From assembly GCA_002269645.1 (NCBI GenBank), contig NIVC01005203.1, positions 1 through 21,582 on the forward strand: a stretch of 21,582 nt of DNA, given 5' to 3'. This stretch comes from Macrostomum lignano. Its lineage: Eukaryota. Numbering within the stretch: position 1 is the stretch's first letter; every line of letters begins with the position of its first letter. Positions 3,911-21,582 of the stretch are shown here, one piece after another. Position numbers and translations under genes: made by a program. The notes below the pieces were generated by a model. That model ran no database searches, was not told where the DNA came from, and worked only from the letters and a program-made list of their open reading frames with translations.

Positions 3911-4181
3911 TGTAGTAGGGCGAATTATGATACTGCCGCACTAGCACTGGCGAGATAGGCGGCAATGCAAATGTATAGGGAAAAATACACTGCGGAGATA
4001 TGAGCCCTATCTCTGTGCATTGGGGACGGCTAAGCACTGCAGAGATATGAGCTCTATCTCTGTGCATTGGGGACGGCTAAGCACTGCAGAGATATGAGCT
4101 CTATCTCTGTGCATTGGGGACGGCTAAGCACTGCAGAGATATGAGCTCTATCTCTGTGCATTGGGGACGGCTAAGCACTGC
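3911..4181 (+). repeat. Left terminal inverted repeat (271 bp)
   Basis: Reverse complement of 20671-20940 with 4 differences: terminal T vs A, a 1-nt indel in cgaat(t)atga, atgtat/cagg, and one substitution in a 47-mer. Confidence 0.93.
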
Positions 4182-4250
4182 AGAGATATGAGCTCTATCT
4201 CTGTGCATTGGGGACGGCTAAGCACTGCAGAGATATGAGCTCTATCTCTG
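3990..4250. repeat. 47-bp tandem array in the left end (5 full units + 26 bp)
   Basis: Unit ctgcagagatatgagctctatctctgtgcattggggacggctaagca starts at 3990, 4037, 4084, 4131, 4178 and 4225. Confidence 0.95.
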
Positions 4251-4579: not shown

Positions 4580-4588
4580 TATATAAGC
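4580..4588 (+). promoter_or_regulatory. TATA box (TATATAAGC), left-arm promoter
   Basis: Preceded by G-rich GGGTGG boxes (4543-4567), followed by an Inr-like TCAATT at 4613, and 112 bp upstream of the first ATG (4692). Confidence 0.6.
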
Positions 4589-4691
4589 CCCGAAATTGAC
4601 AAGGAAGAATTCTCAATTTTTCAAATCCAAAATTTCATCCGAAATTTTCCTCAGCTTTTAACTTTTGTGAGTTTTCAATTGCGAAAGGAAA

Positions 4692-5468
4692 ATGGACATC
4701 TGTGAAGGCTATAAGGCACAAGTCCAGGAGTTTGAAGGACAAAAATTTATCGCTATTCGCAAATTTTACCGACACGGCAGCACGGCAAGTCTGAAGCCAG
4801 GCGTCCCAGGATTCAACCTGAATGTTCACCAATGGAAGAAATTGAAGGAGGTGAAACGCTCACTTGTGATTTCTGCACGCAACAACGAGCCCAAGGTCGT
4901 GAAACTCGGCTTCGATAAGTTTGTGGAAGTCAAAGGCGGCATCATTTGGCTCAAACGGCTGCCGGAAGATTGCTGCGAGGAGTTTTTGAGACGAAACGCC
5001 GTACCACTGACTCCGCCGCTGTGGCAGAAGCTCTGGAAAATCGCCTCCTGGATCGACGGTCAGCTGGTGGCTCCCTTGAGGAACACAATGCAGTACGAGC
5101 TGGAGTCTGATGAGGAAGAGGAGGAAGAGGACAAGAAGCTCAAGTTGGAGGCTGACCAGGACACGAAGCCCATAATGGAGACTGATGAGGGCGGAGATCA
5201 TGCTGATGACGAGGACGTTAGCTCGCCCACAAGGCCGCGCATTGTGACTGAGCCAATCACATCCACACCGATACCTTCGGTTGATTCTGATGCTGGACTG
5301 CTTCCGCAGCGGGACACCAACCTTGAGGAAGATCCGGTGTGGTATCAGTTCAGGGCGCATGCAGCGGCTTCGACGGTGAGCAGCAGCAGCAGGAAGCGAA
5401 AGCTGCCATTTCAACTTCGTCGGCAGGACGCGATGAGGCTGCAGCCCAATGTTCGCTTTGATAACTGA
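4692..5468 (+). CDS. Tandem PC4/Sub1-like ssDNA-binding protein with acidic, disordered C-terminus (258 aa)
   Basis: Domain 1 (YKAQVQEFEGQKFIAIRKFY...LKPGVPGFNLNVHQWKKLKE) matches the PC4 pattern VSVRxFxGKxxIDIRExY...KPGxKGISLxxEQWxxL. A second degenerate copy follows (LGFDKFVEV...IWLKR...VPLTPPLWQKL...IDGQL), then a poly-Glu tract and an RKRK NLS-like motif. Confidence 0.8.
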   Translation: MDICEGYKAQVQEFEGQKFIAIRKFYRHGSTASLKPGVPGFNLNVHQWKKLKEVKRSLVISARNNEPKVVKLGFDKFVEVKGGIIWLKRLPEDCCEEFLRRNAVPLTPPLWQKLWKIASWIDGQLVAPLRNTMQYELESDEEEEEEDKKLKLEADQDTKPIMETDEGGDHADDEDVSSPTRPRIVTEPITSTPIPSVDSDAGLLPQRDTNLEEDPVWYQFRAHAAASTVSSSSRKRKLPFQLRRQDAMRLQPNVRFDN

Positions 5469-5717
5469 ACAGCTAGAATGCTTTGAATGCATTGGACTAA
5501 CTAAATTACTTTTAGCTTGCACATGATTATCCAGCCTGACGGCACTATGCTGTTTTTTATCTCTGCTATTTCTGAAATGCTGGTGTGCGAGTGTTTTAGT
5601 GTTCGTTTTTATGGATTGTTTGCTTTCGGAAAATACACCGACTGTTACGATGTTAGAGGTTTCAATCTGACAGTAATAAATTAATTTGCCACTCGTTTCT
5701 CTATCATTTAATTGGAA

Positions 5718-5723
5718 TATAAA
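5718..5723 (+). promoter_or_regulatory. Possible TATA box upstream of the integrase
   Basis: TATAAA about 65 bp before ATG 5789, just downstream of an AATAAA (5675-5680) that could terminate the PC4 transcript. The AT-rich context makes a chance occurrence possible. Confidence 0.3.
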
Positions 5724-5788
5724 TTTCTACTTAAGAAAAAATACTGTACAGCTAGAGCAGGTGGATAGGCACGTATCTTGATAAACCC

Positions 5789-6859
5789 ATGATGGAGAAA
5801 ATTTATTTGAAACCTGAGCAACCGGCTAGTTTTTCTTGTGCCTCAAAGTTGCTGCATGAAGTGAGGCAAAGAGGTGATCGAATATCTGCAAAGAGCATTG
5901 AGCAGTGGCTCAGCGAGCAGCCAGTGCACACTCTGCACAAGCCAGCTAGGAGGCGATATCCAAGGGCCCCAATCATAGTGCGCGCAATCGATGATCAGTG
6001 GGAACTTGACTTAGTGGAAATGATTCCATTCGCAAAGCATAATAAAGGCTACAAATATATTCTCACATGCATTGACGTGCTCTCAAAATGTGCTTGGGCC
6101 AAGGCACTGAAAAATAAATCTGCTGCAGAAGTGAAGTCAGCATTCGAGAGCATACTGAGAAGTTCAAAGCGCCAGCCACGCACAGTTCGCACAGATCAGG
6201 GGAAGGAATTTATCAACTCCACTTTCCGTCAATACTGCATTGACAGAGGGATTCTGGCTTTCCCAACTAACAGCGAGCAGAAGGCAGCTGTCATTGAGCG
6301 ATGGAATCGAACTCTGAAAAGTAGAATGTGGCGCTACTTCACCTACAAGAGCACACTGCACTGGCTTGATGTGCTGCCTAAGCTGGTAAAATCCTACAAC
6401 AATACCTACCACAGAAGCATCAAAATGGCACCCACTAGTGTCTGCAAAGAGAATGAATCTGAAGTGTGGATGAACCTGTACGATGGAAAAGCAGTCGAGA
6501 CTCTAGAAAAATTAAAGAAGCCTAAGTTCGCTGAAAACCAGTCAGTGAGAATTTCCAATGCTCCACGGATATTCAAAAAGGGATACAAAGCGAGCTGGAG
6601 TGAGGAAGTGTACACCGTGGTGAGCAGAGCCCCAAAACATTATCCCTACATGTACAAGATTAAAGACATGCGGGGGCAAGAGATTCGAGGACTCTTCCAT
6701 GAGCACGAGCTGCAGGCTGTCCCGGACTCACAGCGGCTGTATGTGATTGAGAAGATCCTGAAAACGGAGAAGCGGAAGGGAAAAATTCGCTATCTGGTGA
6801 AATGGGCGGGCTACGACTCGACTGGCTGGGTGGATGAAAAAGACTTAAGAAAGGTTTAG
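5789..6859 (+). CDS. INT: Polinton retroviral-type (rve/DDE) integrase with C-terminal chromodomain (356 aa)
   Basis: Catalytic D (WELDLVEM), D (VRTDQGKEF) and E (VIERWNRTLK). Chromodomain YVIEKIL...YLVKWAGY retains the three aromatic cage residues. Confidence 0.95.
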   Translation: MMEKIYLKPEQPASFSCASKLLHEVRQRGDRISAKSIEQWLSEQPVHTLHKPARRRYPRAPIIVRAIDDQWELDLVEMIPFAKHNKGYKYILTCIDVLSKCAWAKALKNKSAAEVKSAFESILRSSKRQPRTVRTDQGKEFINSTFRQYCIDRGILAFPTNSEQKAAVIERWNRTLKSRMWRYFTYKSTLHWLDVLPKLVKSYNNTYHRSIKMAPTSVCKENESEVWMNLYDGKAVETLEKLKKPKFAENQSVRISNAPRIFKKGYKASWSEEVYTVVSRAPKHYPYMYKIKDMRGQEIRGLFHEHELQAVPDSQRLYVIEKILKTEKRKGKIRYLVKWAGYDSTGWVDEKDLRKV

Positions 6860-6887
6860 CTTTGGCACAGCCCTCATCATGTAGTTT

Positions 6888-7706
6888 ATGATTATAATGC
6901 GAACTATTTTGATTAACAGTGAGCATGCTGAAGGTACTCCTAGTGACTTTAATTTTTACCTGCCTTCACCTATTTACTTGGATCGAAATGTGGACTATGA
7001 GGCAGGTCTGGCTGAAATCCATCTGCCTGCTGCATGGTTCAATGTTGACGAGCCTTACTGCTTCACTGTCTCAGATGGAAGAGAGCATGAGGCCCTGGTT
7101 CTTCAACCCGGACGCTTTGCTAGAGTGGAGGAGCTGGTGGAGCGCCTGAATGAGCTGCTGGCCAACTCTGATTCGCTGTTCTTTGATGCAATGAGTGACA
7201 GGGAGTCTGAGATGGAGGCTGATGAGTCCGGCCTGATGGGGCGTAGTGGCAACAGGGAATTTGGTATGAAGTTCGAAATCCGCAACTCACGAACTGTGGT
7301 GCACAACAACACTGCGAGAGCAGAGCTGTTTCTTCCATCTAGTAAAATTCTGCATTGGCTGGGATTTGGAAACCAGGCTGTGAAAATCCAGCCAGGGAGC
7401 CGCGTATCCGAGCATTGCATTGGCTGCCCGCGCACCAGCTTAATCAATGTGCACTGCAGTATCGTTGAGTCAACTAATTGCAACTGGAGCTCCTTGTTGA
7501 GAACAGTTGGAATGAAAGCTGGCATTGAATGGGGCAACTATCAAACAAAAATATTTAAGAAAACAATATTCTTCCCGATTCAACGAATCAGTCTTCTTCA
7601 CAGCATTCGAGTTCAGCTGCGGGACATCTATGGTTGCCCACTGATTGCACAGACTCACAGCCCTGTTCTGCTTACAGTTCAAATTCAGGAGAAACGCATT
7701 CAATGA
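6888..7706 (+). CDS. Minor capsid protein (penton, single jelly roll; Polinton PX) (272 aa)
   Basis: N-terminus SDFNFYLPSPIYL...YEAGLAEIHLPAAWFNV and C-terminus FFPI...SIRVQLRDIYGCPL fit the Polinton mCP pattern. Located between the integrase and MCP. Confidence 0.8.
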   Translation: MIIMRTILINSEHAEGTPSDFNFYLPSPIYLDRNVDYEAGLAEIHLPAAWFNVDEPYCFTVSDGREHEALVLQPGRFARVEELVERLNELLANSDSLFFDAMSDRESEMEADESGLMGRSGNREFGMKFEIRNSRTVVHNNTARAELFLPSSKILHWLGFGNQAVKIQPGSRVSEHCIGCPRTSLINVHCSIVESTNCNWSSLLRTVGMKAGIEWGNYQTKIFKKTIFFPIQRISLLHSIRVQLRDIYGCPLIAQTHSPVLLTVQIQEKRIQ

Positions 7707-8079
7707 ACTACCAGCAGCTAATCCAGCAATATTCGGGGTGAGGACAGGACACGAAAAGCCTGCACTCTATGGCTGTGGGAGCTTCCCAGGGATCATGACA
7801 TACCAGCCTCCGCCAGCGGCTATATCATCATCATCAGCCTCGACGCTTAGCAACGTCAGGCGCAAAAGAAATACTGAAGCAAGTCCGAAACGATTGAAGA
7901 AAAAGAAGGGCACCCGAAAGGCAACTGGTGGAAATCGCAGTAAGAGGTCGAGCAAGGCTAGTGGGAAAAAGCTTAAGAATAGGAAGACGAAAGCAAAGAA
8001 GAATAGAGCAGGCGGAGGAAAGCGAAAGCAAAAAGTCAGCAAGAAAACTGTGAAACGCGTGCTCGACTCTCTGTCATAG
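7703..8079 (+). CDS. Lys/Arg-rich core-like (pVII-like) protein, split by a -1 frameshift at G4 7735-7738
   Basis: ATG 7703 overlaps the mCP stop (ATGA). MNYQQLIQQYSG runs into the frame of ORF 7645-8079 if one G is added. Very basic C-terminal half; adenain-type site LYGC/G. Confidence 0.6.
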
Positions 8080-8081
8080 AC

Positions 8082-9365
8082 ATGGCTTACGGATTCAATC
8101 CCAGACTTGATTTATTTAAGACGCCCGTTCTACAAACCTGCATTGAAAAAGCTACTTATGTTGATATTCACCCAGTTAATTCCATTGTTGCAAACTCTCC
8201 CATTGAATTTGACTGCCACCAATCTGCCGATGAATATACAGATCTGCTTAATTCTTTTCTTTATATTCGCTGCCGCCTTGTGAGACTGGATGGGGGTTTG
8301 CTGAGGGAGGATGTTCGAGATGGAGATGGCATCATCACCGAGCGCAGAGACAGTGACGTGCACCCAGAAAATTTTGTTCTGTCTACAGCCTTCTCAGATG
8401 TAATTGTGAGCATTAACCAGCGAGTGGTGTCTGGTGGAGACCAGCTCTATCCCTACCATGCGTACTTCAAAGCACTAATGAGCTCATCCGATGCCCAGCA
8501 ACTAAAACTTTACCCTGCTGGCTTCCTGGAGCCGAACTCGGCAGCTGAAGAGCACACGGAGAGCCACAGGGAATCCCAATGGATGGAGTATGCGGGGCCG
8601 CTCTTCAGCGATGTTTTCCAGTGCCCAGTGTTTCTGCTAAGCAATCTGCACCTGCACATCAAACTGGTCCCCAGCGATGGGGCCTTTGCCATCAGAACCC
8701 CGAATGCAAACAACGCGGCATACCGAATGGAAATCTCTCACAGCATTCTGCATCTTCGCCGAGTCAAAGTGATGCCCCACATCAGCCTGGCCCATGAGCA
8801 GGGGCTGACAAACCAAAATGCACTGTATCCCATCGAGCGAACTGAAATGCAGAACTTCATCCTACCCCAGGGTATTCAGTCAAAAAACATTGAAGGATTC
8901 ACTCATGGAAAATTGCCGAAGTTCATCATGCTGGCCTTCGTGAGCCACCGAGCATTCAACGGTCATCATCACGCGAGCCCGTTACAGTTCCAGAGCTTCA
9001 ACCTTAGCCGATTGGCTCTAAAGAAAGGTGGGGAAACCGTGTGCCACGGCGCCTTCACACCTGAAAACAATTCCTTCGTAAGAGAATACTTGCACTACCT
9101 GAAAAGCTGTCAATCTGCAAGCCACACAAACTCGGTCCCGTGGATCCCCTACCAGCTCTTCTCCAACAACACCACGGTGTTTGCATTCGATCTCACACCC
9201 GAGGGAGCGGCTCTGTGGTACGGACAGAAGGAGGGCAACCTGCGGCTGGAGATTCGCTTCCAACAGGCTCTGAATGAAGCGGTGTCCCTGATTGCTATGT
9301 GCCTGTATGACTCGCTGATTGAGGTCACCAAGCACCGAGAGCTTTTGCTGGACTATTCCTCTTAA
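8082..9365 (+). CDS. MCP: Major capsid protein (double jelly roll; Polinton PY) (427 aa)
   Basis: LDLFKTPVLQTCIEKATYVDIHP...PIEF...YTDLLNSFLYI and GKLPKFIMLAFVSHRAFNG...PLQFQSFNL match Polinton MCP patterns. Confidence 0.92.
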   Translation: MAYGFNPRLDLFKTPVLQTCIEKATYVDIHPVNSIVANSPIEFDCHQSADEYTDLLNSFLYIRCRLVRLDGGLLREDVRDGDGIITERRDSDVHPENFVLSTAFSDVIVSINQRVVSGGDQLYPYHAYFKALMSSSDAQQLKLYPAGFLEPNSAAEEHTESHRESQWMEYAGPLFSDVFQCPVFLLSNLHLHIKLVPSDGAFAIRTPNANNAAYRMEISHSILHLRRVKVMPHISLAHEQGLTNQNALYPIERTEMQNFILPQGIQSKNIEGFTHGKLPKFIMLAFVSHRAFNGHHHASPLQFQSFNLSRLALKKGGETVCHGAFTPENNSFVREYLHYLKSCQSASHTNSVPWIPYQLFSNNTTVFAFDLTPEGAALWYGQKEGNLRLEIRFQQALNEAVSLIAMCLYDSLIEVTKHRELLLDYSS

Positions 9366-9370
9366 TTGAC

Positions 9371-9883
9371 ATGGATGCAATTCAACTACTTAATCTCGCC
9401 AGAAAATTTTTGCCTTACCAAAAATTTCTCATAGTTACTTTACATTTGCGCTATAAAAATTCTCTGCCCTTGAATGTAAAAAGAAAATTTAGATCATCAA
9501 TTTCCTTTGAAAACAAGTTTGTTTTTGTCCTACTTCAGCACAATGGCTCATTTGGTCACTGGGTGGTGTGCTATGTTGGGCAAGGAAATCGCATTGAGTT
9601 GTTCAACTCCCTCGGCTGGGAACCTGAAATTTTATCTTTGGTTTATAATTTGTTTCGAGAGATTAAAACAACTGGCTTTTGGCTCCGAAGCAATATAAAC
9701 AGAGTTCAATGTGCTAACTCTAATAAATGCGGAATGTTTTGCATCTATTTTGCTTATCAAAAGTTTCTGTTCAATCGGTCATTTGAGGGGATTTTGAAGC
9801 ATTTGCATGCTAATGAGAAAAATCATTTGAATGATAGAATCTTACAGAGGTTTGAAGCCAACTTAAGAAAAAGATGTCCGTGA
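9371..9883 (+). CDS. PRO: Adenain-like capsid maturation cysteine protease (170 aa)
   Basis: GHW (His), FNSLG (Asn at the usual Asp position), RVQ (oxyanion Gln) and KCG (Cys), immediately after MCP. Confidence 0.88.
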   Translation: MDAIQLLNLARKFLPYQKFLIVTLHLRYKNSLPLNVKRKFRSSISFENKFVFVLLQHNGSFGHWVVCYVGQGNRIELFNSLGWEPEILSLVYNLFREIKTTGFWLRSNINRVQCANSNKCGMFCIYFAYQKFLFNRSFEGILKHLHANEKNHLNDRILQRFEANLRKRCP

Positions 9884-10553
9884 TTTCTAATATTTATGCA
9901 TTAAACATGGGAGAAAAGCAAGTTTGCTACGATATCCGCCTCAGGCAGGGAAGCTGCATGATTGTCTGCGGGCCCACCAATGCAGGAAAAACAACCTTTG
10001 TCGAACACCTGATCCAGTACAGAGACGTCATGTTTGATGTGAAGCCTGGCAGAGTTCTGTGGTACTATGGGATCTCACAGGCAGGCCATGCAGAACTGAA
10101 CAGCCTAGGTGTGCAGCTGCGCCAGGGATTTCCCACCAACATCGAGGCAGCACTTAGGCCCAATGACCTGGTTGTTTTCGATGACTTAATAGAGGAAACT
10201 TCAAACTCTGCTTCAATGCGAAATTTTTTCACAGGAATCGCACATCACTTGCCGTGCTTTTTGGTGATGCTGACTCAGAATATATTTTTCAAGGGAAAAG
10301 AGTCGCGAACAATGAGCTTGAATGTAATGTACTTAGCTATCTTGAAAAACCCCGAGACCAGCTGCAGATTGCAGCACTGGGCAGGCAGTGCTTTACAGAG
10401 AAGCCCGGCTTTCTGCTGTCAGTGTTCAAGCACGTGACCGCGCAGGGCAGGGGAGCCTACCTGTTCCTAGACTTTCACCCATCAACTCCCGATGAGCTGC
10501 GAGTGCGGGCCAGAATTCTGCCCAACCAGCGACCCCATCTTGTATTTGCTTAA
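9874..10553 (+). CDS. A32/FtsK-like genome packaging ATPase, split by a -1 frameshift at C4 10350-10353
   Basis: Walker A GPTNAGKT, Walker B LVVFDD, and IAHH...LTQN. The conserved KNPRDxxQ motif is split between ORF 9874-10437 (…LKNP) and ORF 10254-10553 (RDQLQIAALGRQ…YLFLDF…RVRARILP). Confidence 0.92.
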
Positions 10554-10594
10554 GAAAGTGAAGCTTGTTTTTATCAGCTATTGTTTTCATCGCA

Positions 10595-10933
10595 ATGGAA
10601 GTGCTTGATTCATATGCAAGTCTTTTTGCGGTTCTTGCGTCACCTAAATATACCGTGCGCTTCAAGCGGCTGTTGATAAAAAATTGTCCAAAAGAAGTGC
10701 GTTATTTTCTTGTCGAGGCCTGCCATAATCTCTTACAAAACAATCTATCGTTTTCGCTCGATGAAAAAGCTGTTCTTGCAAAGTCAAAAGAGATAATTCG
10801 AAAAATTACTCACAAAAGAAGAAAGACAGACTTGTTGAAGGCTGGCTTCATCAAAATACTCCCGATTCTGCTTAAGCTGGTAAAGAAGAAGAAGCAAAAT
10901 GAACAAATTTTCAGAAATGGTTCTGATTCCTAA
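10595..10933 (+). CDS. Small basic conserved Polinton/adintovirus protein (112 aa from first ATG)
   Basis: KRLLIKNCPKEVRYFLVEACHNLLQNNL...EKAVLAKSKEIIRKI resembles the recurrent Polinton family pattern LIxxxxxxxxxxIxExxxNxLxGNxxL. The ORF track starts at TTG 10565. Confidence 0.65.
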   Translation: MEVLDSYASLFAVLASPKYTVRFKRLLIKNCPKEVRYFLVEACHNLLQNNLSFSLDEKAVLAKSKEIIRKITHKRRKTDLLKAGFIKILPILLKLVKKKKQNEQIFRNGSDS

Positions 10934-11591
10934 AGCAGAGTATGAGATGTTGATGCAGAATTTGAAGCCAAATGAGACTACCACTGAAGCTGACTTGAAG
11001 CAGGCTCAGAAGAAATGCGATGACATCTTGTATGCCGAGGATTGTCCAGAAGATGTGAAAACCGCCATGTACCAAAGTGCAATGCAAAGTTTGCTGGCCA
11101 AGCGCAAGCACGCTGGAAAAGAAGGAGCACGCAATACTGAAGCCAAGTTGATGAAAACAGAGACACCCCAGATAAGCACCTGGGAAGAGAAGATCAGCAA
11201 GTCGGTGCCACAGAAATTCAAAACCAGGGCTCGCAGTCTGTGGACGATCCTGTCCACCAATCCAGAGCTGATTCGAGTTTGTGAAAACGGGGAGGTGGAA
11301 ATCGCAGGCACGTCAATCCCTTCCTCAAACATACTGGACTTGATTCAGCACACAGTGAGGGATTCGCCATGTGAGCGTGAACCAGTTGGGTGGAACGAGT
11401 TCATCGATTTTCTGCAGCAGAAAAAGCTTAATGTTCCGCTTTCCGCTGTTGGTAAATCAGTTAAGAAGAAAATGGCAACCAGCAGAGGGGGTGAACTGGA
11501 GAAAGAACAGGAGAGTCTAGTCAAGGGGTACGGGAGCAACACAGCCTGGCTGAAATTGCCTGCCAGAAAAGTATATAAGAAGGTGGACTGA
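10899..11591 (+). CDS. Conserved Polinton/adintovirus protein of unknown function (230 aa)
   Basis: MVLIP N-terminus and the block VPQKFKTRARSL...ENGEVEIAG..IPSSNILDLI...PVGWNEFIDFL...NVPLSAVG are characteristic of a widespread Polinton family. Confidence 0.72.
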   Translation: MNKFSEMVLIPKAEYEMLMQNLKPNETTTEADLKQAQKKCDDILYAEDCPEDVKTAMYQSAMQSLLAKRKHAGKEGARNTEAKLMKTETPQISTWEEKISKSVPQKFKTRARSLWTILSTNPELIRVCENGEVEIAGTSIPSSNILDLIQHTVRDSPCEREPVGWNEFIDFLQQKKLNVPLSAVGKSVKKKMATSRGGELEKEQESLVKGYGSNTAWLKLPARKVYKKVD

Positions 11592-11620
11592 CTCCGAAAT
11601 TTTCGAAGGAAAGCTGCATC

Positions 11621-12041
11621 ATGAACTACATTGACTTCCAAGGATTCCGTGCAACAGCACAAGCAAAAAATTTGTTGTGAAGGAGTTGGCAGTTGTTCAA
11701 ATCAGAGCGGGGAGCTACCACATTGCTCACCATGTGTACGCACCTCCGTATCCATGGGAGAGAGTCTCACCTGACATGCGAGTTTACTACAGACAGCTAT
11801 CTAAGAGTCTGCACCAGTTTAAGTGGAATGATGGAACCCGTCCGTACATGGAACTGGCGGAAGACATTCTGAGCATTGCCAGTGGTCCGATCTGGTCAAA
11901 TGGGGAAAGGAAGTCGATTTTTCTGACTGAGCTGCTTGGAAGACAGGTTTATAACCTAGAAGATTTGGGAGCACCCTCGACTGAAGATTCAGATACTGGC
12001 TGTGCAGTGAGAAATTCGTTGCTGCACTACAGTTGGCTTAA
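11621..12041 (+). CDS. Degenerate DEDD exonuclease-like accessory protein (-1 frameshift at A6 11665-11670; 3' end uncertain, frame stays open to 12471)
   Basis: ATG 11621 gives MNYIDFQGFR…, joining KKFVVKELAV…APPYPW…LHQFKWNDG…GERKSIFL…VYNLEDLGAP…CAVRN. This resembles the DxQGF…FxxKELA family seen in Mavericks. Confidence 0.6.
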
Positions 12042-12139
12042 GCCAAAGTTCTGCATCAACTTAAGAAGCGAGCAGTGTCCGTGGCACACGAGCAGTAAAG
12101 TTGGCAGAAGCAGATTTGGTGAAGAAGTTGACGATCGAA

Positions 12140-12712
12140 ATGAGCCCACCAGCTACAGCCCTAAGAGTGACCAATCTGGTTGGCGGAGTAGATCTGAGAC
12201 TGGATGGTGGCAGGGGCGCTCAGCTGCCTCTACGGGAACTGGCTCTCAGCATGGCTCATGTGATCTACCGGCCCGTCTGGCCCCGGGTGCTCATCAAGCG
12301 GATGCGGATTCCCAGAGTGACTCTCCTACTCTACCCTACTGGGCAACTGAGCATCTGCGGTGCCAAGACCCACGCAGACGCCAAAAGGGCTGCCCGTCGC
12401 TTCGTGGCTATGCTGCATCGGAGAGTGCCGGCTCAACTGCTGCCTCATCAAACAATTTGTGTTCGAATTAAAACTATTACTGCTCATGGACAGCTCCCAG
12501 TTCATTCCGCACTTTCCTTATTAATGTTAAAATCAATTATCCCAAACGCCGAATATGAACCAGAATCCTTTTCTGCTTTAATTTTCAATTTAAACTTTTG
12601 TAAATGTCTGCTTTTTCACAGCGGCTCTTTTGTTCTCAGTGGAGCTCGGTCCTTGAATCAGTTGCATACCGATAGCATGCGTCTACTCAATGTAGTTCTT
12701 TCCATTGAATAA
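12140..12712 (+). CDS. TBP: Divergent TATA-box-binding protein (TBP)-like protein with both repeats (first ATG 12140; frame open from 12065)
   Basis: Repeat 1: VTNLV...IYRPVWPRVLIKRMRIPRVTLLLYPTGQLSICGAKTHADAKRAARRF. Repeat 2: AEYEPESFSALIF...CLLFHSGSFVLSGARS. These align with canonical TBP NIV...[37 protein letters not shown]...AARKY and SYEPELFPGLIY...LLIFVSGKVVLTGAK. Confidence 0.9.
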   Translation: MSPPATALRVTNLVGGVDLRLDGGRGAQLPLRELALSMAHVIYRPVWPRVLIKRMRIPRVTLLLYPTGQLSICGAKTHADAKRAARRFVAMLHRRVPAQLLPHQTICVRIKTITAHGQLPVHSALSLLMLKSIIPNAEYEPESFSALIFNLNFCKCLLFHSGSFVLSGARSLNQLHTDSMRLLNVVLSIE

Positions 12713-12719
12713 AAATAAA
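12708..12719 (+). terminator. Tandem polyadenylation signals AATAAA-AATAAA overlapping the TBP stop
   Basis: AATAAA at 12708-12713 and 12714-12719, at the end of the + strand gene block. Confidence 0.55.
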
Positions 12720-13291
12720 GTCAAGTCAAGCAATTTGCCGCAAATATTTCAATGATTAGTGAAAAGTGAATAAAAGGATAAACTTGTATTCTTTACATTC
12801 ATTTTCCCAGGCAGACAGCTATGGAACACTTCAAAAACGTATTTAGCCCATCACCAAAAGTATCGCAAAACGCATATCAAATCCGAAAGTAAACAATACT
12901 ACCATCGTTATAACAAACGATGTGCACCGAGAGAAGAGAAATAGAAAAGTGATAGAGAAAATATGATTAAAACGCTGATTGAATTTACAGGAACAATTTA
13001 TGTCAGATAAAAACCAAAAACACATTTTAAACAAGTAGTACACAAAGCAAACAAAAATGAATTAATATTGTATGAGCGCACTTGCCACAGCTTTATAAAA
13101 AGTAAAACTTAAATTGATATCAATATTTCACGCCGCAAAAACAAATTGACAGCTAAATCTAGCGCAATTAGCCAAGCATACAAATTTGTAAAAGTTACTA
13201 CATGCAAGTCACTACATTTAAAACAGAATTTGGCAATTTAAACAACTCTAAAAGCAAGAAAAAGTACTAAACAGTCTGTTAAACACCCGCA

Positions 13292-16200
13292 CTAGACCAG
13301 TCGGATGCGCTTCAGCTGATCGTGGGATGCGGGCGTCAGCGCATAGTGTCCGTAGGGCAGGCTTCGATTACTGCTAAGCCACACTCGCTTATCCTCCCAC
13401 ACCGATAGGCTTCTTTTCTCCATGACCGACGTGAAGATTTCGTGTTTCTTGGAAACAATCGCTGTCATGGCAACCATCTGCTCTTGCTTGGACTCGAACG
13501 CGTCGACATAGTTCGCATGCGAAATTTGCTGTCTTACTACTGACTGCTTCACGCCTTTGGCAGTTTTCTTGATCTTTGCACTCGAATTCTCGGCAGGGAG
13601 AAACGAATAAAGTTTTGGACGCAAAAGAATCCACTCCTGGTAAATTCCACCAGCAGATTCATCTTTAACGCAGCCCAGCTTTCCTTTTAACTCTTCAGAG
13701 AAATGCGGATGGTCTCGAGAATAGTTGGATGTGTCAAGTATTTTTTCCTCTCTAAGCTTCGGGATTACCTCCGATGTTAAATCATGATTCTTGAAAGCTA
13801 GAAAAAATGAGTCAGTATCACCTCCGCAAAGCATCATGTCTCTGGAACCGTCTGAATGACAGAACAGCGGTCGGAGCCTGTCATATAGTAGGCTGTACAT
13901 GGCCATCTTAGAGAGATCGAGAACTGCCTGGCCAACGAAAATGGCCTTGTCAAGCGTGACTTTATCTTTTTTGAGCTGAAAAATGCTCAACGACTCATTG
14001 ATAATCGAGAATGCGGCACAGTTTGGTCGAGAGGCGCAAGTTTCTGCTTGAGTCTGGTTAGTGCAAATTCGAACATCGCATCTTTTTCGAACGTTCTCCA
14101 TAGTTTTTCCAAAGAGAGAATTGTTTTTCAATTTGTAAAAATCCTTAGCAAACTCGGAAGTTGCCAAAGCTCTTTTTTCATTGTTGCTGGCAATGTACGG
14201 CGCGAAAATATTTTCCTGCTTGAACGAAATCATTTTTTTGACGCACTTGATCCGCATTCCGTGTTGCAGGTAAAATCTTAAAACGGTGCTGTGAACTACG
14301 TAAGAATCCTTGTCGGTACAGGTGAGTAGAAGCTTCTCCGTTGCTTGAAACTTAGCTTCAGCATTGCCAGTTCGCTGTTCAGCAATCTCTTTCCATAGTT
14401 CGGCCATGTACGGCGAGAATTGATCTGGCTGTGGTTTTGATTTTTCAGGTGCAAACGGTAACTCCTGAGTCGAATCGTGAATCTCAGCTGGGTATTCTAG
14501 ATCGAGTTGAACAAGGTAGGCGATCTCGGCTTCTGGATTGAGTGACAGAAACCGATTGGAGTCCCAGAACTGGATTTCCTGTTCCGGTACCCACCTGAAT
14601 TCCCTGCATGGAAGCGGAAGCGACAGGGCAAAGCCATACAAGTTGTTCATATCGATCGGCATGAGGCTTACACTCTCTTGCTGATCATCATAACCTGGCA
14701 AGCTAGGATTATTACCTTTGACGCAATGCACATTAATGAAGGACATGCCTCCTCGTATTCCCTTCTCAAACAGATGATACATGTCAGCATCAGTCAGCTG
14801 CTCTAGAACCACTCCAGTCGACTTTAGAGCTGAGTCGTAAGACAAACCAGGAGTAGTAAAGTAGTGTACCGGATCCAATCCGTCCTCTTTCAGACTGGCC
14901 TGTCGGAATGTCTCGAAAATGTCAGCCAGCTGCCTTACATCCATTTCAAGATAGGCGAGCATATAATCCTTCAAACTTTTGCATTGAAATGCCGCCCATG
15001 CCGCTCTTGCTCTATTGTAGTCGTCGTCGGAAATTCCCCTATCGGAAAGTCGATTAAAAAAAGCATCTTTAGGCGGCAAAACCGACTGCTCGAGAATCTC
15101 AAATCCTGTGAGGTAATCATATGGGAAAATCCCTTTTTTTCGAAGTAGCTCTCTTGAAAGATGTGGTCTTGACTCAAGCATTTGCATTGTCAGCTTGCAT
15201 TCAGCTTCGGGAAGATTAGCAAACAAATTGGACAAACTTCCCTTCAAAAAGCAGAGCGAGTCGATGAACTGAATTGTAAACATGATTGGCACAACTTTTC
15301 CGTTCTTTACGTAACTTGCAACAGGGAATTCCGCCCTTAGTGACAAGTATCGCTCGGATGATTGCGGAACAACACTAAGTTTCCAATTTTTCATGCTCCC
15401 AAGCGCAGTGGAAAGTAGAAGATGAAGGTCGTAGCCGCCTAAGTTGTGAAAAACCAGGGGCAGAAACCGGCGTCGGAGCTGTGCTCGCAGGTTGCATTCT
15501 TGACATGCACCTTTGTACTGTCCATTTAAATGATCGTGGTCAAAATGTTTATCTGTAGAACTTTTAAAGTTCTTCTTGCAGTAGTGACATACCTCAGCAG
15601 AATTGAAATCATCCATGACGGTCGCGGATGATCGGTCAGCCGGCTGGTGGCTATGCTTCTGGTTCCAGTGAAATATATCCTGAGCCAGGCTTTCAAGAGA
15701 TTTGAGAAAACCAAGGATACACTCATCAGGGTCCGCATTGCAAAAGACCTTGTACATGTCTCCTTCTGGCCTAAGCGGAGGTCCTGTCATGCCTTCACGA
15801 GGCACTGCAAGAAAAGCTGCTGCACATGGTTCATGCTTTGAGATCAGGTTAGCAGGGTCTGTGTTCGCTCGCAAAATGGCTTCCAGGTCGGCATAGGCAA
15901 CGAATGGTGGACTGACAGTGTTTTGACAGTTTCGGAACTTTATTTCATTCTGTCCTGGAACTGGAAGCGTTTCTTTGACAGGATTTTCTGCAGTAATGCT
16001 GCATTCGTTCCTGTGCTCTTGAAGCCTCTCGTTGCTATAAAATGATGTTAAACATTTCGTGCACCACTTCCTCATGGCGGGACCATTACGACTGTTCATT
16101 AACCTGTCAAAATTAGTAATTGCACACCAGTGCTCCGATCCGTAGCTGTCTTTAACTAGCAAAAGCATGAGGTGTCTTCGGTCATCTGACTCATGCTTGC

Positions 16201-16938
16201 GGCGACGGAGAAGAGTCACACTGCCCTGCTGCCAAGAGAACGCAGAAATGCAAATTCCTGGATTGTTAGACTCGACGCGATCGATATCAGCGACACTCAC
16301 TGGCATGGAGATTTCTGCAAAGTCCAGCTCACGCAACCATTCATCGTAAGAGGATATTCTGTTGGGCGATTTCTGAACTTTCGGATCGGCGCTGTGCAGT
16401 GCAGCGAGACAGGCGTACAGGAAACAGTCTTTGCCTGTGCTCGGTGGATTGATAACAGCCTTTTTGTTCTTCAAACTGGCAGGAAGATTGAATCTAACGG
16501 CTCTGCCCTGGCGAAATCGAATTGGATTGTACCTGGCAAGGTTGATGTCTAGAAAATTAATTTGTTTAATTGTCCAGCCACTGCCGTTCGTATTAATCAT
16601 ACTACAGATCCTCTCCAACTCCTGCTCCTGCTCAATCAACCAGTTGTTTAAACGGCCTGCTTCACCACCTAGGTCTAGGGCCTGCATTTTACAGCTTATC
16701 CATCTGTCCTCTTCGGCAAGCATCTCCCCATCTCTTATTCGGACCATTCGAATATTCGCCTTTAGCTGAACTTTGTAATGATGTCTTGAAATTCTTTGCT
16801 GAACTGCCTCAATAATTTTGTCTCCAGCTTGGACAAAAAATTCTGACGGAAGCGTGTCTGGGTGACTCGATCTGAGCCTCAGTATTTCCAGTGATTGATC
16901 ATAGGCTTGGGCAACTCTGCTGAAGCTGACTGTTGAAC
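13292..16938 (-). CDS. pPolB: Protein-primed family B DNA polymerase with vOTU, C2H2-like Zn finger and Endo VII insertion (1151-aa ORF from 16747; frame open to 16951; likely last exon starts at 16938)
   Basis: Exo I YADLEA, Exo II FHNLGGYDLHL, Exo III YLEMDV. Pol motifs DMNNLYG, KLKNNSLFGK, GGDTDS and RPKLY. vOTU DCF…HW; zinc finger CTKC…H…C; Endo VII CHYC…DHDH…CQECN. Confidence 0.96.
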
Positions 16939-17153
16939 CTGGTTTGTGGTTTTAGGATAATATTTTTGTTTTTTGCTGCCAAGATACTAAACTAAACGTC
17001 TGTACCCAAGCATACATGTACAACCCTACCGGTATAAAGTCTTTTATCTCCCCTTCTCCCATTCTTTGGACTAAAATTTTAGACTGCATAATATACATCG
17101 CATTGATAAGAAAATTTTTAAGTAAGTTGAAAAGGATAAATAAAGGCACTTAC
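16939..17153 (-). other. Predicted 215-bp spliceosomal intron upstream of the polymerase exon
   Basis: Donor CAAG|GTAAGT (17154/17153) and acceptor CCAG|GT (16939/16938), AT-rich. Both ends are phase 1, giving CAA G|GT TCA in frame. Confidence 0.6.
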
Positions 17154-17173
17154 CTTGGTGTGCATCAGTCACC

Positions 17174-17365
17174 GACTCGCTGTTGGCTGCTGACTCGCTG
17201 CTGGCTGCTGACTCGCTGCTGGCTGCTGACTCGCTGCTGGCTGCTGACTCGCTGCTGGCTGCTGACTCGCTGCTGGCTGCTGACTCGCTGCTGGCTGCCG
17301 ACTCGCTGCTGGCTGCCGACTCGCTGCTGGCTGCCGACTCGCTGCTGGCTGCTGACTCGCTGCTG
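17174..17365. repeat. 18-bp tandem repeat, about 10.7 copies (SESAAS on the - strand)
   Basis: Unit gactcgctgctggctgct. Confidence 0.93.
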
Positions 17366-17384
17366 ACGTCATGGTCCACCCAAG

Positions 17385-17580
17385 GGTGGTCATACTCGAT
17401 CCACGAGTGGTCATCCTCCATCCACGAGTGGCCATTCTCCATCCATGAGTGGTCATTCTCCATCCATGAGTGGTCATTCTCCATCCATGAGTGGTCATTC
17501 TCCATCCATGAGTGGTCATTCTCCATCCATGATGGTCATCTCATCCATGAGTGGTCATTCTCCTGCTCCATCCAGGAGTG
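17385..17580. repeat. 21-bp tandem repeat, about 8 copies (MENDHSW on the - strand)
   Basis: Unit ccatccatgagtggtcattct; one copy (about 17527-17544) lacks three single bases. Confidence 0.9.
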
Positions 17581-18512
17581 CTCAACCATAGAAAAGGCAA
17601 GCAGTTAAAAGCTGACAGTGTTTACTGGCTGCAACTGAGTGTCATAAGCAACTGGGAGTGAATATTGGAAATCTTTTTCGTAAGTCTTTATTGCTGCAAT
17701 ACTGGTACAATATCCACACTTACAAGCTAGTAGATGCTGGTTATATTTTTTTGGTTCTCCCTTAAGCTAGCTCTCTGCATGCATATTCTATTGATCCCTA
17801 TTCGTAAAAGTTCGTTTCTATTTGCCTCCTACGCAGACTCAATCGGTAAAAAATGCAAAATGAAGCCAATAGTTAATTAACAAACCAATCACCGAGTGGA
17901 AAAATGCTGACATTATATATATATTTTTTAAAAAATTATCGAATTCACATGGTGCAATCATAGTCAATAAACAATGCATGGAACAATGAATTACAAATAC
18001 AGACGAGAGTTTAGAAGCAGAAATATAGCTGAAAAGTTCAATAATTAAAGAATGAGGAAACACCGCGTCAAAGCAGTAGAAAGAAAATTATACCTAATCA
18101 ATCGCACCAAGCATACGAAACCATCACCAATTTATTGAAAGTATGTTATGTTGATTTTAATTTGTTAAATTCAACTGTATAATGTTTCACCTACTTTTCA
18201 AATAATTTTTTTTACCTCGGATACCAAAAAATATTGGTTGCCACTACGAGCTACGAGCTTTTTTTAAAACTAATTTGGAAATGAAAACTGAAAACTTATA
18301 AGCAAGATTCCTAGAAGCGAATACAGAGTTATGAGATGATCAAATCATTAATTAATGTACCTACTTTCAACTTTAAAAAGCTAGTTGAAATAAAGTTTTA
18401 GCAATAATTGCAATAAATGGGTAGATTTCTCACTCCACACAGAAAGCAAAAAAGTACAAAAATTGCTTAGTCACAGCGGCACAATTCTAATACGATTTTC
18501 GAAAATCGTTAC

Positions 18513-20157
18513 CTCGTACCCAGCCCCGCCGACAGGAGGCAGAAAGAAGGCAACTCCAGCTGGCACGGGTGGAGTTTCGGATTGAGAAGCTGGAATTGTA
18601 GAGGCTGCAGCTGGGCGGCTGGAGCAGCTGGGGCAGCCAGAGCAGCTGGGCGGCTGGAGCAGCTGGGGCGGCCAGAGCAGCTGGGGCGGCCAGAGCAGCT
18701 GGGGCGGCCAGAGCAGCTGGGGCGGCTGGAGCAGCTGGGGGGCCAGAGCAGCTGGGGCGGCTGGAGCAGCTGGGCGGCCAGAGCAGCTGGGGCGGCCAGA
18801 GCAGCTGGGGCGGCCAGAGCAGCTGGGGCGGCCAGAGCAGCTGGGGCGGCCAGAGCAGCTGGGGCGGCCAGAGCAGCTGGGGCGGCCAGAGCAGCTGGGG
18901 CGGCAGAGCAGCTGGGGCGGCCAGAGCAGCTGGGGCGGCCAGAGCAGCTGGGGCGGCAGAGCAGCTGGGGCGGCCAGAGCAGCTGGGCGGCCAGAGCAGC
19001 TGGGGCGGCCAGAGCAGCTGGGGCGGCCAGAGCAGCTGGGGCGGCCAGAGCAGCTGGGGCGGCCAGAGCAGCTGGGGCGGCCAGAGCAGCTGGGGCGGCC
19101 AGAGCAGCTGGGGCGGCCAGAGCAGCTGGGGCGGCCAGAGCAGCTGGGGCGGCCAGAGCAGCTGGGCGGCCAGAGCAGCTGGGGCGGCCAGAGCAGCTGG
19201 GGCGGCCAGAGCAGCTGGGCGGCCAGAGCAGCTGGGGCGGCCAGAGCAGCTGGGGCGGCCAGAGCAGCTGGGGCGGCCAGAGCAGCTGGGGCGGCCAGAG
19301 CAGCTGGGCGGCCAGAGCAGCTGGGGCGGCCAGAGCAGCTGGGGCGGCCAGAGCAGCTGGGGCGGCCAGAGCAGCTGGGGGGCCAGAGCAGCTGGGGCGG
19401 CCAGAGCAGCTGGGGCGGCCAGAGCAGCTGGGGCGGCTGGAGCTGCAGGTGCACAATTGCATATGCGACTCATTGTCGCTGCCCTCCTCTTCTAGATTTC
19501 CATTTCGTGTCGTCTTCATTAGATGAAGTTGTTTTCCAGCAATCACCGGAACCGAAGAGACAGGTTGCTGCTGCTGCTGACGACCCTTCTCCTTGAATTC
19601 CCTGAGGAACTGATCCAGGACATCTTCCTCTATGAAGTTTATGACAGCAGCAGCCTCGACTCCAGCAGCCTCGACTCCAGCAGCCTCGACTCCAGCGGCC
19701 TCAACTCCAGCAGCCTCGACTCCAGCAGCCTCGACTCCAGCAGCCTCGACTCCAGCAGCCTCGACTCCAGCAGCCTCGACTCCAGCAGCCTCGACTCCAG
19801 CAGACAGCTCAACTTCAAATTCTGCAGCTGCTGAAGACCCGCTTGGCCTATCCTCTTCAATGTAGAGTCAATTACTTGACTCAAGTGAGCTGATAGCAGA
19901 CTCCTGCTGGCTCCTTTTTTCTGCTGGATCTTCTTTTCTCTCTCGTTGCTCTTTTTGATGGCGCGGATTACTTTCCAGCGGTTACTTTCTTGCTTTTTCT
20001 TGTCATCGCTGACGATCCTGTGTCCTCGATGATATGCTGGAATTTTTCCCTCCTGCAGAGCTTCGACGGTGCCGCACTGGTCGCATGCCAACCAGCATGA
20101 GACCAGACAGTTCTCATTCTCGTGGTGTCTTGGGGACACGCCTCCAAGCAGGCACAC
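18513..20157 (-). CDS. Putative low-complexity protein/exon of the right arm (frameshifted; boundaries uncertain)
   Basis: Non-repetitive protein-like segments flank the arrays: a Cys/His-rich start, a basic coil, LYIEEDRPSG, VINFIEEDVLDQFLREFKEKGR and STIPASQSETPPVPAG…GGAGYE. Ends at a possible donor GAG|GTAACG (18513/18512). Confidence 0.4.
18607..19447. repeat. 18-bp GC-rich tandem array, about 47 copies (PAALAA/PAAPAA on the - strand if units are uniform)
   Basis: Unit gccagagcagctggggcg; about 11 copies are one base short, causing the frame switches seen in three overlapping ORFs. Confidence 0.93.
19648..19803. repeat. 15-bp tandem repeat, about 10 copies (GVEAA on the - strand)
   Basis: Unit cagcagcctcgactc. 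Confidence 0.93.
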
Positions 20158-20315
20158 TTCGGCAGCTTATACAGACCTCATAGAGGTCTCTATGACAACT
20201 TTTAAAATTTTCATTTTTGAAAGAGAAAGAGTTGTTTTTTAGAAGTAGTAAGGTTTTTAAAAATCATTTTATACAATTTGTTTTTGTCTATTTGTTTATT
20301 TGTACTTGCGTGGCT

Positions 20316-20324
20316 GCTTATATA
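20316..20324 (-). promoter_or_regulatory. TATA box (TATATAAGC), right-arm promoter
   Basis: gcttatata on + equals TATATAAGC on -, identical to 4580-4588 and at a similar distance from the end (616 vs 669 bp). Confidence 0.55.
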
Positions 20325-20661: not shown

Positions 20662-20670
20662 TCCATCTCC

Positions 20671-20940
20671 GCAGTGCTTAGCCGTCCCCAATGCACAGAG
20701 ATAGAGCTCATATCTCTGCAGTGCTTAGCCGTCCCCAATGCACAGAGATAGAGCTCATATCTCTGCAGTGCTTAGCCGTCCCCAATGTACAGAGATAGAG
20801 CTCATATCTCTGCAGTGCTTAGCCGTCCCCAATGCACAGAGATAGGGCTCATATCTCCGCAGTGTATTTTTCCCTGTACATTTGCATTGCCGCCTATCTC
20901 GCCAGTGCTAGTGCGGCAGTATCATATTCGCCCTACTACT
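20671..20940 (-). repeat. Right terminal inverted repeat (270 bp) containing four 47-bp units (20675-20862)
   Basis: Ends in CCCTACTACT at 20940, the canonical Polinton-type 3' end. Confidence 0.93.
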
Positions 20941-21172
20941 CCTGTCAATGAGACGTCATGGCAGATGTCAGCGAAACGTGTGTTCTCAAATCTCTTCTTC
21001 ACTTTGTGCAAGTTGACTGTCACTAGAATGCGCACAGCATCTGCATACACTTTGGACGTCATTAATTTAGAGAAACGGTGACTACATATTTGAGTTTAGG
21101 GGCCATATGCTTACTAAAAGATCTGAACGCACATAAAAATTTGAAGTTTTTTACACACTATATATCTACTCC

Positions 21173-21582
21173 GCATGAGGATCTACTCCCACCTGAGGAT
21201 CTACTCCCACCTGAGGATCTACTCCCACCTGAGGATCTAAACCCACCTGAGGATCTACTCCCACATGAGAATCTAATCCCACATGAGGATCTAATCCCGC
21301 ATGAGGATCTAATCCCACATGAGGATCTACTCCCACATGTGGATCTAAACCCACTTGAGGATCTAAAGCACCTGAGGATCTACTCACAATGTGATCTACT
21401 CCCAACAGAGGATCTACTTCCACCTGAGGATATACTCCATCTGACCTAATCCGCATATGAGAATATAATCCCACTCGAAGATCTAATCCGACTCGAAGAT
21501 CTAATCCCACTCGAGGATCTAATCCCACTCGAGGATCTAATCCCACTCGAGGATCTAATCTCACTCGAGATCTAATCCCACT
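21173..21582. repeat. Host 18-bp minisatellite, about 20+ degenerate copies, running off the window end
   Basis: Unit gaggatctactcccacct and variants. Confidence 0.9.

Follow-up and report, generated by a model that had tools for sequence, protein, structure and literature searches.

The window, a 21,582-nt stretch of the Macrostomum lignano genome, carries a 17-kb Polinton with long terminal inverted repeats (TIRs) that are 99% complementary (Table 1). Polintons, or Mavericks, measure 15-20 kb, encode a double jelly-roll major capsid protein and are flanked by a 6-bp target-site duplication; no clear target-site duplication was seen at the window copy. Between the TIRs lie a family B DNA polymerase (PolB), an rve integrase and an adenovirus-type cysteine protease, the last scoring above the Pfam cut-off, and together with the TIRs these genes bear out the Polinton setting proposed in the first-pass annotation. 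The putative packaging ATPase gave only weak P-loop matches. The putative major capsid open reading frame (ORF), of 427 aa, is conserved and has no sequence match in Pfam, NCBIfam or the PDB; we infer the identity of the capsid genes from their place and size. Among the 12 window proteins, none matched a TFIIB or RNA polymerase family, and a search of the genome for the Pox_A32 family found nothing.

The frame breaks near 10350 and 11650 fall where the contigs of four sequencing runs have a length other than that of the window, as assembly errors would. The PC4-like gene stands at the left end in family A, behind a TATATAAG box, and is convergent with the TBP gene described below in family B (L058:6282-6716). 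The right arm, from 16750 to 20300, contains long arrays of 15-, 18- and 21-nt tandem repeats that lie in open minus-strand frames behind a TATATAAG box, possibly representing exons or ORFs leading to PolB. Outside the element, the left flank holds a perfect inverted repeat of 34 nt, its arms 37 nt apart, and after it tandem repeats with a 28-nt unit (2336-2440), and the right flank an array of 18-nt tandem repeats (21136-21582).

Table 1. Genes, promoter boxes and repeats of the Polinton, in window coordinates
Feature	Position	Strand	Basis or remark
Left TIR (approximate ends)	3911..4250	+	Repeat comparison
TATATAAG host-type box	4580..4587	+	Before PC4-like gene
PC4-like gene	4692..5468	+	Pfam PC4, E 5.5e-8
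CTTAAGAA box	5730..5737	+	59 nt before integrase
rve integrase with chromodomain	5789..6859	+	Pfam
CTTAAGAA box	6844..6851	+	44 nt before putative minor capsid gene
Putative minor capsid protein	6888..7706	+	Place and size; no family match
TTTAAGAA box	7554..7561	+	Before basic-protein gene (149 nt before start in sister copies)
CTTAAGAA box	7972..7979	+	110 nt before putative major capsid gene
Putative major capsid protein	8082..9365	+	Place, size, conservation; no family or PDB match
Adenovirus-type cysteine protease	9371..9883	+	Pfam
CTTAAGAA box	9862..9869	+	Before putative packaging ATPase
P-loop ATPase, putative packaging	9874..10590	+	Weak P-loop matches; frame broken near 10350 in window copy
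CTTAAGAA box	10549..10556	+	46 nt before 112-aa ORF
Composite box TATATAAGAA (host-type TATATAAG plus TAAGAA core)	11572..11581	+	Before upstream ORF
Upstream ORF, no assigned family	11621..12471	+	Frame broken near 11650 in window copy
CTTAAGAA box	12060..12067	+	80 nt before TBP start codon, inside upstream ORF
Element-encoded divergent TBP, 190 aa, two repeats	12140..12712	+	ORF, Pfam, PDB, model
TBP repeat 1	12164..12418	+	Asn12, Pro48, Tyr65-Pro66, Ser71; GC 0.6; upstream ORF overlaps
TBP repeat 2	12461..12694	+	Glu140, Glu142, Phe144, Phe159, Ser145, Lys155; GC 0.38
Mosaic junction	12470..12500	.	Sisters near-identical before, synonymously saturated after
Family B DNA polymerase, organellar/viral type, convergent with TBP	13292..16747	-	Pfam DNA_pol_B_2, E 2.1e-12
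TATATAAG host-type box	20317..20324	-	Right end, facing PolB arm
Right TIR	20665..20940	-	Repeat comparison

Next to PolB, an uninterrupted ORF with an ATG start encodes a two-repeat TATA-binding protein (TBP). Its product matched the Pfam TBP family in two stretches (PF00352, E 7.9e-25), and a PDB sequence search returned 35 TBP sequences, archaeal and eukaryotic, at E<=0.01. The AlphaFold model (pLDDT 91.9) superposes on solved TBPs with a TM-score of about 0.8-0.84 (~0.83) and an rmsd of about 2 Å, displaying the saddle of two direct repeats that defines PF00352. The ORF comprises the bare domain core; both recognisable, uninterrupted repeats and the lack of an N-terminal extension had been read correctly at first pass, and the profile and structure searches suggested there agree with that reading. 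The span given for repeat 2 was transferred from identical copies. By comparison with viral models in BFVD, the element TBP showed 7-21% identity and TM-scores of up to 0.74, weaker than its matches to cellular TBPs. When a profile was run against 50% clusters, cellular TBPs crowded out other matches, since the alignment contained a host row; single-sequence folding of the family F protein gave a model too poor to be informative (pLDDT 42).

With cellular TBP the element protein shares the two-repeat saddle and residues Asn12, Glu140, Glu142, Phe144 and Phe159; the two differ in overall sequence (29% identity to the host TBP, L051), in the N-terminal extension and at several positions of the DNA face. 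For the slots compared here, we take yeast TBP numbers 99, 116, 190, 207, 69, 159, 122, 186 and 188 to apply. Numbers 191, 100 and 203 are those of PMC1636458, as given in its accessible text. Both intercalating Phe residues of repeat 2, Phe144 and Phe159, are retained, and Tyr65 occupies the second Phe slot of repeat 1, as originally noted. The first slot had been described as a Trp accompanied by a short deletion. The alignment to human TBP is instead ungapped at Trp47-Pro48 and the modelled loop is of equal length, with Pro48 on the Phe and Trp47 on the host Arg that precedes it. Pro48 occurs in 20/20 element rows, of which eight have W before it, four H and eight R/K. The four intercalating Phe residues of canonical TBP are therefore represented by two Phe, one Tyr and one Pro, and the suggestion that the changes stay aromatic holds for the second position of repeat 1 but not for the first, where the Trp side chain might still fill the Phe slot in the window's family. 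The central Asn, present in both repeats of canonical TBP, is kept in repeat 1 (Asn12) and replaced by Thr112 in repeat 2 (the Asn159 slot), in line with the first-pass annotation. Ser145 lies in the Pro191 slot and Arg49 in the Ala100 slot, such that the Pro191/Ala100 asymmetry is absent, and Ser71 and Lys155 occupy the Val122 and Val203 slots. Loss of intercalating Phe is also a feature of the TBP paralogue TRF2/TLF, in which three of the four are gone; the host TLF (L052) keeps one, whereas the element TBP keeps two and a Tyr.

Two stirrup acids of TBP contact TFIIB (PMC7221094, accessible text), and both are present in the element protein as Glu140 and Glu142. Glu142 and Phe144 are found in 20/20 element rows, and an acid occupies the Glu140 slot in 18/20. 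On the DNA face, Pro48, Tyr65-Pro66, Ser/Thr71, Phe144 and Phe159 are fixed across families A-E.

Searching its own genome with the element TBP yielded 152 matches, 25 of them at 100%; some copies are broken. The 30 best copies show 99.1-100% identity across 2.2-3.6 kb, so the window's subfamily spread recently. A further 22 matches were fetched, picked to cover the range of identity, and at all 22 loci other element genes adjoin TBP. In family B the gene order is unchanged, with TBP 37% and the putative capsid 39% identical. Families C-F were reached through capsid-like matches while seeking a control family of Polintons lacking TBP. No such family was found by this route: TBP-like frames occurred in 18 of the 20 more distant elements (9/10 and 9/10), the two misses being L091, where the fetched span had no match, and C889, for which that span broke off within PolB. 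Among distant members, E and D1 pass the Pfam TBP cut-off, F2 and D2 fall just short, and C and F1 have no match, leaving 4/6 below it. Nine database proteins are relatives of the element TBP but lack genomic context, and no related locus was found in IMG/VR or in JGI metagenome contigs.

In families C-E the TBP gene is located in the PolB arm. In six TBP frames of families C-F the domain is not preceded by a start codon (L090:4345, L092:5146, L094:5128, L098:5628, L106:4942 and L114:4778), and in C-E a pyrimidine tract and AG just before the domain suggest splicing onto an upstream exon. In family D1 (L092:3740-5146 (-) and L097) the TBP frame is continuous with a deoxynucleoside kinase domain (Pfam dNK, E 6.7e-24). 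Families C-E also contain what we take by eye, from its motifs, to be a dUTPase-like gene (L074:1267-2133, L080:1309-1884, L085:7345-7875). Family F (L100-L115, L118-L119) has the integrase, putative capsid and ATPase, and no PolB match within the 20 kb fetched.

Purifying selection is evident in both repeats, with dN/dS of 0.06-0.21 for repeat 1 (36/36 pairs) and 0.06-0.38 for repeat 2 (29/36 pairs, the other 7 being saturated); in one family B copy, L053, dN about equals dS. One branch of a 43-row tree separates the 20 element rows from the 23 cellular rows with support of 94/84, a value to be read with the tree's long-branch warnings and unsettled bootstrap. The element TBP and TLF do not group together, and the comparison with host TBP and TLF proposed at first pass thus sets the element proteins apart. 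The two host genes (TBP, L051:2213-2869 (-); TLF, L052:1845-3035 (-)) each match three places in the assembly. It had also been argued that the gene is under selection for a DNA-binding fold, and that absence from sister elements together with neutral evolution would speak against this. The dN/dS values, the element genes adjoining TBP at all 22 fetched loci and the invariance of DNA-face residues across deeply diverged families uphold that argument. The element TBP is a real, old Polinton gene maintained by selection, and not a recent passenger.

Part of this gene is open in two frames. The upstream ORF enters TBP in the -1 frame and overlaps it by 109 codons in the window copy, by 106-110 codons in 17/17 family A copies and by 128 codons in 5/6 family B copies. 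Stops are avoided in the overlap frame (synonymous shuffles, P 0.002-0.04), whereas seven other genes carry 4.7-10.1 stops per 100 codons in their -1 frame, and the overlapped part has at most about half the synonymous divergence of neighbouring genes. Nevertheless, the idea that dual coding keeps repeat 1 conserved is borne out only in part, because the overlapping tail avoids stops without amino-acid conservation of its own beyond the level imposed by TBP. Frames in which the upstream ORF and TBP are fused occur in some copies and in P0007; we did not accept them as real, since these loci are rich in indels.

At the end of the overlap, GC content falls from 0.60 to 0.38 and sister copies shift from near-identity to synonymous saturation, marking a recombination junction inside TBP. 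The PolB of these sisters is about 50% identical to that of the window, against 85-97% for their putative capsid, suggesting that right arms have been swapped among sister elements. The GC drop, the abrupt switch at the end of the overlap and the divergence of PolB together indicate that the TBP gene is a mosaic, its second repeat travelling with the polymerase arm. The contig of run X1 departs from the window sequence at 12491.

Upstream of the element genes we found a recurrent box, CTTAAGAA, with eight copies in the window and six within the element. All six copies inside the element lie on the sense strand, and 0/100 shuffles reached eight in the window. A broader pattern, YWTAAGAA, was derived from the window and family B jointly; it occurs eight times in sense and never in antisense in the window module, against 0.64 expected, with 0/200 shuffles reaching this count. 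Sense/antisense counts were 8/1 for L037 and 5/0 for family B (0/200 shuffles each), and 7/0 in each of three diverged A2 loci (0/200 shuffles), which played no part in defining the pattern. In the region upstream of the integrase, the box core is kept among subfamilies whose flanks are unrelated. The box of family B is often TATAAGAA. Families C-E carry TATAAGYAA at 2-5 copies per module and the family F module carries six copies of TATAAATA, motifs that were read off the very loci scored.

The boxes stand ahead of most module genes, usually 35-80 nt before start codons, and not in the TIRs. Coverage of the gene set is incomplete: no box was found for PolB or within 120 nt of the protease gene, a 230-aa ORF has only a variant box, and in the three A2 loci scored none stands directly upstream of the putative major capsid gene. 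In C, D2 and F the TBP frame is preceded, at a distance of 0.6-1.7 kb, by the host-type box TATATAAG; in E its place is taken by TATAAATA, and in D1 no TATATAAG occurs within 2.5 kb upstream. No sequencing run holding the stretch was recorded as RNA. Contigs of 4/24 listed runs cover all of 4600-16900, and because this includes the gaps between genes, the contigs cannot tell RNA from DNA.

According to the accessible text of PMC1636458, TATATAAG is the site most often selected by wild-type TBP and TATAAATA, the U6 box, is a perfect host site. CTTAAGAA departs from this host preference at bases 1, 2 and 6. The possible shift in specificity raised at first pass is thus matched by a candidate non-canonical box. 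The probe proposed there for SELEX or EMSA, TATATAAGC, is the wrong target, since TATATAAG is the most frequently selected site of wild-type TBP (PMC1636458), and CTTAAGAA would be the informative one. The same source suggests that Pro191 disallows any base but T at base 1, and reports that G at base 6 is never selected by wild-type TBP, which nonetheless has cavities able to accommodate it. Pro191 is absent in family A, where base 1 is mostly C, and kept in C-E, where base 1 is T. Families B and F also lack Pro191, yet their base 1 is often or always T, so loss of this residue would only permit the change. The Val122 slot holds Ser/Thr in 18/18 rows of families A-E, where base 6 is G, and Ile in F, where base 6 is A. 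About one inferred change underlies this covariation, which also tracks element ancestry; as we presume rather than establish that Val122 faces base 6, the pattern is a lead only.

Virus-encoded TBP folds are known from the vTBPs of beta- and gammaherpesviruses (EBV BcRF1, KSHV ORF24, HCMV UL87), which serve TATT late promoters, a non-canonical TATA variant before structural genes (PMC4893493, PMC12529657, accessible text). In the element, a non-canonical box likewise stands before putative structural genes, and host Pol II, used by vTBP, is the enzyme proposed for the element TBP. The systems differ in build: vTBP forms part of a larger, multi-domain protein that belongs to a complex of six proteins, whereas the element TBP is a bare 190-aa core, and no family match to the partners of such a complex occurs among the window proteins. 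They also differ in contacts, as vTBP binds Pol II itself and has been modelled as incompatible with TFIIB, while the element TBP keeps the TFIIB glutamates. We regard the likeness as a functional analogy, with no shared descent shown. Large dsDNA viruses also encode TBP-like proteins, often alongside a viral TFIIB and with diverged TFIIB signatures (PMC7221094), unlike the element TBP.

A "TBP" label already appears in figure legends for MELD viruses with adintovirus-like PolB (PMC8502044; 10.1101/697771). In the accessible parts of these sources it is a label only, in a section on non-animal datasets, with no residue, selection or promoter analysis and no mention of Macrostomum. The novelty of a Polinton TBP consequently holds only in part: the gene has been labelled before, and no description of one with a matching promoter was found in the literature searched, while figures, bioRxiv supplements, subscription papers and repeat databases may record the gene. 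The accessible text of PMC10748475, PMC12220804 and 10.64898/2026.06.19.733378 contains no relevant mention of TBP or TATA terms.

By analogy with herpesvirus vTBP, we consider it fairly probable that the element TBP acts as a viral late-promoter factor on its own YWTAAGAA box. This reading builds on the observed fold, purifying selection, spread, box position and TFIIB glutamates, and box and TBP together would likely give the element a private late-gene switch on the host transcription machinery. In such a scheme, host TBP would first fire the TATATAAG boxes at the element arms. The element TBP would then accept C/T at base 1 and G at base 6 through its changed repeat-1 face (Pro48, Tyr65-Pro66, Ser71) and the lack of Pro in the Pro191 slot, and on the predicted box it would recruit host TFIIB and Pol II. 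The integrase, putative capsid and packaging genes would be switched on late in the element cycle, with the box at -80 of the TBP gene itself providing positive feedback.

An early-to-late cascade requires TATATAAG upstream of TBP, an arrangement present in C, D2 and F, whereas in family A the TBP gene itself lies behind a late-type box, which argues against the late-factor reading. The strongest counter-point is the family F box. It is a perfect host site, and wild-type TBP has room in its cavities for G at base 6 (PMC1636458), so not every family needs a private code; escape from host control may be as much the purpose of the factor as recognition of a new sequence.

Host TBP/TFIID might instead read all boxes, with the element TBP a helper or decoy that evades or titrates host regulators, or ties up TFIIB, and does not determine specificity. 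The canonical box of F and the frequent TATAAGAA of B would fit such a role, as would the TFIIB stirrup, the most invariant surface of the protein, and the basic helix-2 patch, which is kept in A and lost in B. The DNA-face residues are, however, fixed in A-E, and CTTAAGAA is kept across subfamilies despite lying off the host preference at three bases; on balance we think this unlikely.

Quite improbable, in our judgement, is a role as an architectural DNA-bending factor in replication, integration or packaging rather than transcription. Loss of one intercalating Phe in 20/20 rows, replacement of Asn159 and the placement of the gene in the PolB arm in C-E would be compatible with it, but the TFIIB-binding acids are kept and the boxes precede genes rather than lying in the TIRs. 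Alternatively, the boxes could be read by the machinery of a helper virus, as with virophage late promoters, leaving TBP with an unrelated job. The baculovirus late motif has a similar TAAG core, and TBP-independent late motifs are known in virophages. Against this, the boxes have a TATA-box-like spacing from start codons and vary between families within one host in parallel with the TBP clades, and we hold it to be very improbable. A recent neutral retrocopy of host TBP, to which the lack of introns, the broken copies and L053 might have pointed, is refuted and retains next to no credibility: the host TBP core is itself a single intronless frame, as is that of TLF, so intron absence is no sign of retroposition, and the gene is only 29% identical to host TBP, has element context at 22/22 loci, is present across families, shows dN/dS far below 1 with saturated dS, and separates from the 23 cellular rows in the tree despite its long-branch warning.

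Returning to the late-factor reading, we tentatively extend it to a lineage-wide scheme, a real possibility that stops short of probable: Polintons of the flatworm lineage may run the smallest known late-transcription switch, with a single inherited TBP linking host TFIIB and Pol II to a private core promoter. Each family would then have its own pairing of TBP and box (YWTAAGAA, TATAAGYAA, TATAAATA), and interchangeable repeat-2 halves would be swapped with the polymerase arm.

Gene regulation in animal Polintons is almost unstudied. If their particle genes are indeed preceded by a box that matches a conserved transcription factor, this would speak for a staged programme like that of a virus, and so bear on whether these elements have a true viral cycle. 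Macrostomum lignano is a laboratory flatworm amenable to RNAi, and its Polinton families offer natural TBP variants with predicted target sites, allowing a direct test of the rules of TATA recognition. As standard annotation misses distant members, with most of those examined falling below the Pfam cut-off, the gene may be far commoner in Polintons than the literature indicates. If the proposed reading is true, animal Polintons would offer a set of TBPs whose specificity has been altered in nature, along with an early-to-late cascade of their own, neither of which we found in print. Judged from sequence, a lineage-wide Polinton TBP with family-specific boxes probably constitutes a minimal late-gene switch.
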